Shown here: one piece after another, positions 12,423-13,160 of the stretch | Layout: each line of letters opens with the position of its first letter | Numbering within the stretch: position 1 is the first letter of the stretch | Assembly (NCBI GenBank): GCA_030648815.1 | Contig: JAUSHA010000029.1 | Coordinates: 1 to 19,473, forward strand | Reading direction: 5' to 3' | Length of the DNA stretch: 19,473 bases | DNA from: a bacterium | GTDB taxonomy: Bacteria; Patescibacteriota; Minisyncoccia; Minisyncoccales; MHMH01 | Made by a program: the position numbers and the translations under genes | The notes under the pieces: generated by a model | What the model was told of the DNA's origin: nothing | What the model saw: the letters and a program-made list of their open reading frames with translations, nothing else | The model's database searches: none

Positions 12423-13160
12423 TTATTCTAGAAATAACTCATAATATTCTTTAAATTTTCCTTTATATTTTATATAATCTTCAATAAATTTCTCGCACGC
12501 TCTTTCACCACCCGTGGTTTCTAACATAAATTCTCTATCTGTTACTGATGGAAAATTCGGCTTTCCTAAATAATCAGAAAAACTTGACCATTTATACTCT
12601 TTCGCAAATTTTATAGCTTTCTTTATGTCGCGGATGCCCCTTTCTTTCCATTTCGGCTCTATCAAGGAAACTGAATTAGCATGAATATACGCAAAAACAA
12701 TTTTTAACTGTTCGTCAGTCTTGATGAGGACTGACAAAAATCTGTTCTGAAAAACGTAACCCTTGCGGCCATGTTTTAAATTAAAATATCTAGCATACCC
12801 GCCGCCGAATTTCTTCATAAATTTCACAATTCCACCATCTTTAATCTGTCTTATTAATAAATGAATATGATTCGGCATCAAACAAAAGGCTATAATTTCC
12901 ACAAGTTTATCTCGTAAATCAGTTTGGGCGGACGTCGGGTCTCCGCCCAAACTCTCTGTTTTTTTGAGATATGCCTTCATTCTGGAGCGATCCCTTCGAC
13001 GCTTTAAAATCTCTACCGGATTTATTGTATTAAATTCGTAAATAGAAAAAATCCCCCGATAATAGTCATTGGTATCTTTGAAAAGTTTATTATCATCAAT
13101 GCCCCTTAAAATAACGTGATAAATTCCGTCGTTAATAAATTGTTCTTTTCTGTATGGCAT
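12423..13160 (-). CDS. REP-associated tyrosine transposase-like protein (IS200/IS605 TnpA Y1 / HUH family)
   Basis: GIYHVILRG is followed by the HUH motif CLMPNHIHLLI, then GYVFQNRF, the catalytic-Tyr helix FAYIHANSV and KWSSFSDYLG. The start is set at ATG 13160 (MPYRKEQF). The track's 13 extra N-terminal codons (MLGGRRVSAQTHN) are simply a translation of repeat copy 3. Confidence 0.75.
   Translation of the reverse strand: MPYRKEQFINDGIYHVILRGIDDNKLFKDTNDYYRGIFSIYEFNTINPVEILKRRRDRSRMKAYLKKTESLGGDPTSAQTDLRDKLVEIIAFCLMPNHIHLLIRQIKDGGIVKFMKKFGGGYARYFNLKHGRKGYVFQNRFLSVLIKTDEQLKIVFAYIHANSVSLIEPKWKERGIRDIKKAIKFAKEYKWSSFSDYLGKPNFPSVTDREFMLETTGGERACEKFIEDYIKYKGKFKEYYELFLE
12921..12953. repeat. REP-like palindrome, copy 2, embedded in-frame inside the RAYT-like CDS
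   Basis: AGTTTGGGCGGA-CGTCGGGTC-TCCGCCCAAACT has a 12-bp perfect stem and is 33 nt in total. It has the same loop orientation as copy 1. On the coding strand it begins exactly on a codon boundary and encodes SLGGDPTSAQT. Confidence 0.8.

Follow-up and report, generated by a model that had tools for sequence, protein, structure and literature searches.

An in-frame hairpin within a patescibacterial RAYT-like gene as a probable third copy of its flanking REP-like hairpins

Introduction

Why would a gene for a transposase-like enzyme carry, in frame and ahead of its catalytic motif, a perfect copy of the hairpins that bracket it? The question is raised by contig JAUSHA010000029.1 of the patescibacterial assembly GCA_030648815.1 (GTDB lineage Minisyncoccia, Minisyncoccales, MHMH01), which was analysed over its stretch of 19,473 nt, referred to as the window. 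Its minus strand encodes, at positions 12423..13160, a Y1 (HUH) tyrosine transposase-like protein that resembles the repetitive extragenic palindrome (REP)-associated tyrosine transposases (RAYTs), and a 33-nt hairpin occupies codons 70-80 of the coding sequence (CDS). In Escherichia coli and other bacteria, a tnpA_REP (RAYT) gene bracketed by hairpins of REPs or bacterial interspersed mosaic elements (BIMEs) constitutes a REPtron (Nunvar 2010; Ton-Hoang 2012, PMC3333891). With a probability of roughly 0.6, we consider the 33-nt block to be a third, intragenic copy of the REP-like hairpin that brackets the RAYT-like gene: old, evolving in concert with its flanking copies and cognate to the encoded enzyme, so that the locus would represent a three-hairpin "REPtron."

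The three hairpins and the encoded protein

The internal hairpin (12921..12953, minus strand) consists of perfect 12-bp arms and a 9-nt loop, the plus strand reading AGTTTGGGCGGA-CGTCGGGTC-TCCGCCCAAACT in the order arm-loop-arm. It begins 207 nt (69 codons) past the ATG, is translated as SLGGDPTSAQT and lies upstream of the HUH codons 97-100. A preliminary description of this DNA had reported a perfect 33-nt in-frame hairpin with these arms and this peptide ahead of the HUH motif, and every detail was confirmed from the sequence. Folded as RNA, the block reaches -22.4 kcal/mol (z = -5.8), and none of 200 shuffled sequences folds as well. A 31-mer is found twice within 3 mismatches, against 0.00 occurrences expected by chance, and the window holds exactly three copies of the hairpin, all of them at the RAYT-like gene.

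The upstream copy (13166..13198, minus strand) forms a perfect 9-bp stem (13170-13196), occupies the space that separates the stop codon of the preceding ychF gene from the ATG at 13160, and is inverted with respect to the internal copy, to which it is complementary at 31/31 positions (12924-12954). The downstream copy (12390..12422, minus strand) has a 12-bp stem and the orientation of the internal copy; its first base directly follows the stop codon, and it is identical to positions 12924-12950 at 27/27 nucleotides. The basal stems of the two differ (AGTTT... in the internal and AAGTT... in the downstream copy), and each copy is still a perfect palindrome. The feet of the window hairpin read GTTG, while those of locus L081, a syntenic ortholog, read GTAG and GTGG and several further loci display GTAG...CTAC. 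The internal stem was also considered as a terminator, a candidate that was dropped, as no U-tract follows the stem and no terminator was predicted by a scan of the minus strand; the same scan predicted no minus-strand promoter.

The gene encodes 245 amino acids followed by a stop codon (12423-12425), and its product is 100% identical to database protein P0001 and matches Pfam Y1_Tnp (4.8e-11). The start at ATG 13160 is backed by homology, whereas the mechanical open reading frame (ORF) begins ahead of it at 13199. Calling the ORF from this first ATG turns the upstream hairpin (13161-13199, minus strand) into a false N-terminal extension (MLGGRRVSAQTHN), and database protein P0008 carries the same kind of extension (LGGRRVSAQPHN). 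For annotation, the consequence is that flanking hairpins are translated by ORF callers as N-terminal extensions that do not exist.

The HUH motif is NHIH (N97-H98-I99-H100; 12861-12872, minus strand), and the catalytic tyrosine Y158 lies in the motif AYIHAN (12675-12692, minus strand). In an alignment of 40 homologs, N97, H98 and H100 are invariant, as are Y158, I159, H160 and N162. The protein scores 45.1 bits with the NCBIfam model REP_Tyr_transpos (NF047646), which is under the cutoff of 80, and far worse with the IS200 model (16.9 bits; cutoff 55). The best fold match of its AlphaFold2 model in the PDB is 4er8_A, the E. coli TnpA_REP bound to a REP hairpin; no PDB sequence was matched at E <=0.01 by a profile built from the family alignment. 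A clade-specific insertion of about 40 amino acids, comprising a basic helix and the hairpin-encoded loop, precedes the HUH strand, and the family of the window protein carries a C-terminal W-S-S extension. In the AlphaFold model, the hairpin-encoded loop connects a long basic helix (residues 51-70) to a strand (residues 87-94) that precedes the HUH strand, and the hairpin-encoded block has a predicted local distance difference test (pLDDT) score below 50 at residues 71-83. The preliminary description had expected the block to map to a surface loop, and in the model the encoded peptide is a low-confidence loop before the HUH motif.

Conservation of the internal hairpin in the clade

For comparison, 79 loci were fetched from GTDB species genomes of Nealsonbacteria, Staskawiczbacteria, Wildermuthbacteria, Paceibacterota and other Patescibacteria; one genome often contributed several diverged paralogs, and gene-level counts refer to 78 genes. 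A segment of equivalent length is present in 40/40 aligned homologs (60-81% identity), among which no empty site or indel was found at the hairpin position. The peptides encoded by the segment include LGGDPTSA, LGGNPTSA, SGGGPSSA, VVGDPTSD, NRDPVSV and KENPPSF, and elsewhere REQFS and GRAS. The 11-residue block had previously been suspected to be an indel, which this alignment contradicts; the further suspicion that homologs might carry non-palindromic segments in its place did not hold, as the equivalent segments are palindromic.

Perfect stems of at least 7 bp, and of up to 21 bp, occur at the same position in 47 of the 78 genes. Stems of at least 8 bp are found at the site in 41% of genes, compared with 4.2% of the other 150-nt windows of the same CDSs and 1.9% of shuffled sequences, and stems of at least 10 bp in 23%, compared with 0.6% and 0%, respectively. 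The hairpin is also present in paralogs at 40-50% identity, though not in one paralog at 30% identity, and in syntenic orthologs (about 80% identity) it is positioned at the same codon.

The preliminary description had stressed that the hairpin starts on a codon boundary. This is true of the window copy and yet incidental, as the hairpin starts of homologs occupy all three codon phases. What is conserved instead is the phase of the palindrome centre: among 42 internal hairpins of odd length, 40 are centred on the second base of a codon, and the central codon reads CGG in 15, CCG in 12 and CAG in 10. Counting outward from the centre, the pair at position 1 is C-G in 41/42 hairpins, that at position 4 is G-C in 36/42, that at position 5 is A-T in 41/42 and that at position 6 is G-C in 40/42, while all four pair types occur at positions 7-12. 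Across the clade, the apical core GAG-R-N-CNG-N-Y-CTC is near-invariant, whereas the outer stem is specific to the locus.

The pairing is conserved and shows covariation. In an alignment of six close homologs that was based on homology and not on structure, 87.5% of cells are paired and both sides have changed in 7 of 12 pairs, a value that was reached by none of 500 shuffles and compares with at most 2 in slid controls. At L081, the internal copy reads GGTCGGA/TCCGACC where the flanks have retained GGGCGGA/TCCGCCC, which represents a compensatory change. Synonymous-codon shuffling is a partly informative control here, since the amino acids themselves encode the palindrome, and positional, shuffle and flank-anchored tests were used instead.

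At some loci, the internal site holds doublets of two inverted hairpins (REPIN-like, with stems of 17-21 bp) or several copies (L028:4636-4673, L059:3067-3112 and L060:10222-10292), and the flanks of L021, L045, L047 and L067 likewise contain doublets or several copies. The site can therefore expand in steps of a complete hairpin unit without loss of the frame.

Paralogy is extensive in several of the source genomes. In assembly CAYIJU01, the loci L001, L003 (two genes), L008, L015, L037 and L056 represent diverged Y1 paralogs, each with a hairpin variant of its own, and multiple Y1 paralogs are also found at L027 (two genes) and L045 (three genes). At least six diverged paralogs in single small patescibacterial metagenome-assembled genomes (MAGs) are unusually many for RAYT-type genes, given genomes of about 1 Mb.

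In the syntenic orthologs L080 and L081, the order ychF, RAYT-like gene, HI0933-like oxidoreductase is the same as in the window, and identities to the window proteins amount to 86% for YchF, 80% for the RAYT-like protein and 77-81% for HI0933. Because this neighborhood is kept and the RAYT-like protein has diverged to a similar degree as its neighbors, the unit is a resident, vertically inherited one, as RAYTs are and insertion sequences are not.

Concerted evolution with the flanking hairpins

The relationship of the internal copy to its surroundings was analyzed with a flank-anchored test, in which the GC-rich hairpin flanking each gene was taken and its best match sought across the whole CDS of about 730 nt. 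This best match falls at the conserved site in 57/69 loci. Flank and internal sequence are at least 90% identical in 40 of these 69 loci and 70-90% identical in a further 13, in which the internal sequence can be considered a relic, so that in 53/69 loci the gene contains, as a copy or relic, the hairpin of its own flanks. For 40 of the 47 internal hairpins, a matching copy lies within 160 nt upstream or 110 nt downstream, and for 26 of them on both sides. Only 12 further copies were found in 613 kb of flanking DNA (10 kb on either side of the genes). Hairpin sequences are wholly different from one locus to the next, also among paralogs within a genome, and at L084 one loop substitution is common to all three copies. 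The descriptive half of an earlier proposal, namely that the gene carries its own hairpin internally, is upheld by these data, as position and phase are conserved, the sequence tracks its own flanks and changes are compensatory.

The orientation of the loop varies. Between internal and downstream copies it is direct in 20 loci and inverted in 13, and between upstream and downstream copies inverted in 26 and direct in 13. The CCG and CGG states, and likewise CCCGT and ACGGG, are flips about a fixed centre.

A mixed locus was found at L083:1040-1922, where the upstream hairpin is of the window type (GGGCGGACGTCGGGT.TCCGCCC), while the internal copy and, as far as the contig end permits, the downstream copy are of a different type (GGAGGCCCGTCCTCC). 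This mixture suggests that paralogous units have exchanged hairpins or gene modules.

Truncated gene fragments ending at a hairpin were sought by tblastn, as they would be expected if excision from hairpin to hairpin were common; none was found, and the matches were full paralogs or genes cut by a contig end. The possibility that the 31-nt inverted pair formed by the upstream and internal copies drives inversion of the 5' segment of the gene was rejected, as no locus displays an inverted arrangement and such an inversion is also implausible from the strand polarity of single-stranded DNA (ssDNA) cutting and rejoining.

Dispersed and in-frame copies in other genes

An exact-match scan of metagenome contigs returned no match to the window's own hairpin. 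An unbiased scan of the same kind for one related hairpin type (GCGGAGACCCGTTCTCCGC) identified 90 copies on 76 metagenome contigs, 27 of which are situated at RAYT-like genes (10 upstream, 12 downstream and five at the internal site) and 63 elsewhere. Almost half of the latter (30/63) lie in frame within long ORFs. Ten of these host ORFs were scanned with Pfam: seven have domains on both sides of the copy, two have no match and a Mur ligase was matched only upstream of it.

The in-frame copies in host genes (contigs L086-L161 and L068) are mostly located at interdomain linkers. Examples include an enolase with the hairpin at amino acid 132, between the N and C domains (L120:491-1741), the alpha subunit of ATP synthase (amino acid 56; L111:1579-3102), a RecG-like helicase (amino acid 271; L137:193-1659), ComEC (amino acid 199; L147:9487-11034), a GT4 glycosyltransferase (amino acid 235; L106:1589-2839) and two POR/TPP enzymes (L086 and L097). 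In the linker of DprA (L068:4629), a 29-nt in-frame copy is identical to the internal copy of the RAYT-like gene of the same genome. In several enolase orthologs, the hairpin occupies one common site and its loop is found in either orientation (AENGSPL and AETRSPL), which indicates that the loop flips in place. The host genes use several reading phases (GGERVSA/SGDPFSA and AENGSP/AETRSP), whereas a single phase is used in RAYT-like genes.

As judged from this related type, the hairpin class appears to be dispersed, mobile and often tolerated in frame, much like the palindromic elements of Rickettsia. Because enolase, ATP synthase alpha, the Mur ligase and other housekeeping genes contain it in frame, the stem is unlikely to block translation of the RAYT-like gene. 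An ancient in-frame insertion is a plausible origin of the internal hairpin for a related reason, namely that hairpins of the same class occur in frame in many other genes.

Proposed mechanism and alternative explanations

These observations can be combined into the following model. The internal hairpin is an old feature of the patescibacterial clade, located in a loop-coding position between helix alphaA and the pre-HUH strand, where any palindrome-encoded peptide is tolerated because the position corresponds to a predicted disordered surface loop. It is kept foldable and matched to its own flanks by a turnover at the DNA level, consisting of copy correction among the three neighboring copies, loop flip-flop and compensatory change. 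The hairpin would further serve the enzyme whose gene surrounds it as a cognate ssDNA substrate. Enzymes of this Y1 kind bind such hairpins on ssDNA, cleave and rejoin them, through which sequence can be exchanged between nearby copies. In E. coli, TnpA_REP is able to bind REP copies, cleave them and recombine them in vitro (PMC3333891). Anatomy, conservation, concerted evolution, covariation and loop location are thus established from the sequences, while recognition of all three copies by the enzyme, and its contribution to their homogenization, are inferred. The three cis copies could thus be the best-placed "master" copies of a probably dispersed REP-like family, dispersal having been seen for the related type only.

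Several points weigh against this model of a third, enzyme-cognate copy. Binding and cleavage of the hairpin by the window protein are presumed by analogy with E. coli TnpA_REP and IS608, and homogenization could also proceed by ordinary recombination or template switching without the enzyme. The mixed loop orientation leaves no fixed strand logic of the IS608 type visible in the sequences, and a clear GT[AG]G foot is not evident in the window hairpin. The evidence for dispersal is limited to the related hairpin type, the window hairpin being represented by just one 19.5-kb contig. Finally, about one third of the family members have lost the perfect internal hairpin while retaining the flanking ones, so that some lineages at least can do without the internal copy.

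A more far-reaching version holds that the intragenic hairpin is a functional cis site that is bound or cleaved by its own Y1 enzyme and has one of two roles, that of a protected "master copy" for reseeding the REP family or that of a self-limiting switch. In this version, enzyme and hairpin would co-diversify in each paralog and the same mobile system would have colonized housekeeping genes in frame. We regard it as a tentative possibility that is more doubtful than not, and a regulatory pay-off such as self-limitation is speculative.

The opposite explanation is that the internal copy is a passive relic, i.e., an ancient in-frame REP insertion that was homogenized by RecA-type gene conversion or by template switching at hairpins, with no role for the enzyme and no function. 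The proximity of the three copies, all within 800 bp, would favor such a process, as would the loss of the internal copy in about one third of the loci and the fact that the loop also flips at a fixed site in the enolase orthologs, where no RAYT gene is adjacent. However, the common tracts comprise merely 20-30 nt or so, which is short for RecA-type conversion, the near-invariance of the apical core among paralogs down to 50% identity suggests a recognition constraint, and compensatory changes have occurred in the internal copy independently of its flanks. We consider a purely passive relic unlikely, although ordinary recombination without the enzyme is a serious rival.

A role at the level of mRNA was also weighed, in which the transcript hairpin controls expression of the gene by pausing translation, by RNase processing or because the protein binds its own mRNA. 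The stability of the RNA stem and the conservation of pairing with covariation are in agreement with this idea, and since no minus-strand promoter is predicted nearby, the gene is probably co-transcribed with its structured flanks. On the other hand, both loop orientations occur relative to the frame (CCG and CGG; CCCGT and ACGGG), a process at the DNA level is suggested by the identity to flanking DNA copies whichever way these are oriented, hairpins of the same class reside in frame in highly expressed housekeeping genes and no U-tract follows the stem. An mRNA element thus appears rather improbable.

The preliminary description had further proposed that the element inserted into the gene of its own mobilizer and was tolerated because its length of 33 nt is a multiple of three. 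That other genes do receive in-frame copies of a related hairpin of this class, and that the internal copy matches its flanking copies at 27/27 and 31/31 positions, could be taken to favor a recent event of this kind. Yet the segment is present in every homolog, the syntenic orthologs share the hairpin at the same codon and its centre has the same phase in 40/42 genes, whereas insertions into host genes use several phases. Because there is no empty site, orthologs and paralogs carry the hairpin and its phase is locked, a recent self-insertion is very improbable and was rejected. A chance palindrome, a protein-level constraint (a GGxPxSA-like motif) or an assembly artefact can be dismissed, as the peptide varies freely while pairing is kept, the internal sequence matches non-coding flank copies and the hairpin is present in dozens of independent assemblies.

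Relation to known systems

With the REPtron, the three-hairpin locus shares a Y1/HUH enzyme with a single catalytic tyrosine and a fold closest to 4ER8, as well as the bracketing of the gene by cognate GC-rich hairpins that are inverted to each other in the window and mostly so across loci. A fixed locus with vertical inheritance and a divergence similar to that of its neighbors, a separate hairpin type for each paralog with diverged paralogs within a genome, and the dispersal of a related hairpin type elsewhere in genomes are further common features. Unlike the REPtron, the locus has a third cognate hairpin inside the CDS at a conserved, phase-locked site. The window protein scores below the NCBIfam RAYT cutoff and has the pre-HUH insertion of about 40 amino acids, the window hairpin lacks a clear GT[AG]G foot, and the genomes of this clade are small and have many diverged paralogs.

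REPs located in frame inside tnpA_REP genes have been reported for RAYT subclass 2.4, corresponding to Bertels group 4 (Quentin et al. 2018, PMC6006769). In both cases, cognate REPs lie inside tnpA_REP in a peripheral, variable region of the protein and the frame is intact. Here, however, the site precedes the HUH motif (alphaA-beta2 loop), its position and codon phase are fixed throughout a patescibacterial clade, and the hairpin shows covariation and has demonstrably evolved in concert with the flanks. Furthermore, subclass 2.4 is without the C-terminal W-S-S extension (PMC6006769) that the window family possesses. The general phenomenon of an in-frame REP in tnpA_REP is hence already known, and the present case differs from it in the clade (with scores under the NCBIfam RAYT threshold), the site, the fixed phase and the demonstration of concerted evolution with covariation. 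Literature searches for RAYT or REP in Patescibacteria or the Candidate Phyla Radiation (CPR) returned nothing relevant, and nothing on intragenic REPs was found when Corneloup 2021 (PMC8266576) was searched for them.

TnpA of the IS200/IS605 family (IS608 and ISDra2) has the same Y1/HUH fold, and hairpins are present beside both ends of the gene. The ends of these insertion sequences, however, are hairpins on the same strand, whereas the flanks described here are mostly inverted. Transposition of the whole unit gives rise to near-identical copies, while the unit analyzed here is syntenic, diverges with its neighbors and reaches only 16.9 bits with the IS200 model (cutoff 55); copy number is weakly tested in this comparison, as MAG assemblies could collapse identical copies.

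Palindromic repeats known as Rickettsia palindromic elements (RPEs), a term in use in Rickettsia genome papers, reportedly occur in frame in protein-coding genes and are said to be tolerated in surface or linker regions. RPEs measure about 100-150 bp and are not known to have a mobilizing enzyme. The related patescibacterial hairpin resembles them by its presence in frame in enolase, ATP synthase alpha, RecG-like helicase, ComEC, DprA and other proteins whose flanking domains are intact, and differs from them in that the hairpins are about 19-33 nt long and are tied to a Y1 gene which itself hosts a copy. An RPE-like in-frame colonization of housekeeping genes in Patescibacteria is apparently undescribed.

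Some HUH initiator genes contain their own nick site or origin, as do phiX174 gene A and pT181 repC; these are the origins of small replicons and have a demonstrated function. The recognition structure of an HUH enzyme, which is a predicted one in the present case, would likewise lie inside the enzyme's own CDS. In contrast to these initiator genes, it is one of three local copies of a probably dispersed repeat family.

The spread of REPs and the matching between RAYTs and their repeats are poorly understood, and a clade with the cognate hairpin in the frame of the enzyme would provide a natural record of their co-evolution. The locus also offers a compact test system in vitro, with a gene of about 800 bp and three substrates. 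The in-frame hairpins at linkers of enolase, ATP synthase, DprA and ComEC extend the RPE phenomenon to another lineage with reduced genomes and link it to a candidate mobilizing enzyme. If a functional cis site and in-frame colonization both proved true, a second RPE-like phenomenon with an identifiable mobilizer would be at hand and the spread of in-frame palindromes would become experimentally tractable.

Neighboring genes and other hairpins of the window

The upstream neighbor ychF (13199..14266, minus strand; Pfam YchF-GTPase_C and MMR_HSR1) ends with a stop codon at 13199-13201 that abuts the upstream hairpin. On the other side, a serine-hydrolase gene (11838-12380, minus strand) separates the downstream hairpin from the HI0933-like gene. 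The syntenic loci L080 and L081 lack this gene, HI0933 coming directly after the RAYT-like gene there, so that it represents a gene-sized indel beside the hairpin. An ORF of 420 amino acids at 14413-15675 (minus strand) has no Pfam match.

Three other strong perfect hairpins are located in intergenic regions of the window, at 9016-9045, 15733-15759 and 15768-15798, with stems of 13, 12 and 14 bp, respectively, and their sequences are unrelated to the RAYT hairpin. The hairpins at 15733-15759 and 15768-15798 adjoin each other, and that at 9016-9045 lies between convergent genes and may be a bidirectional terminator.

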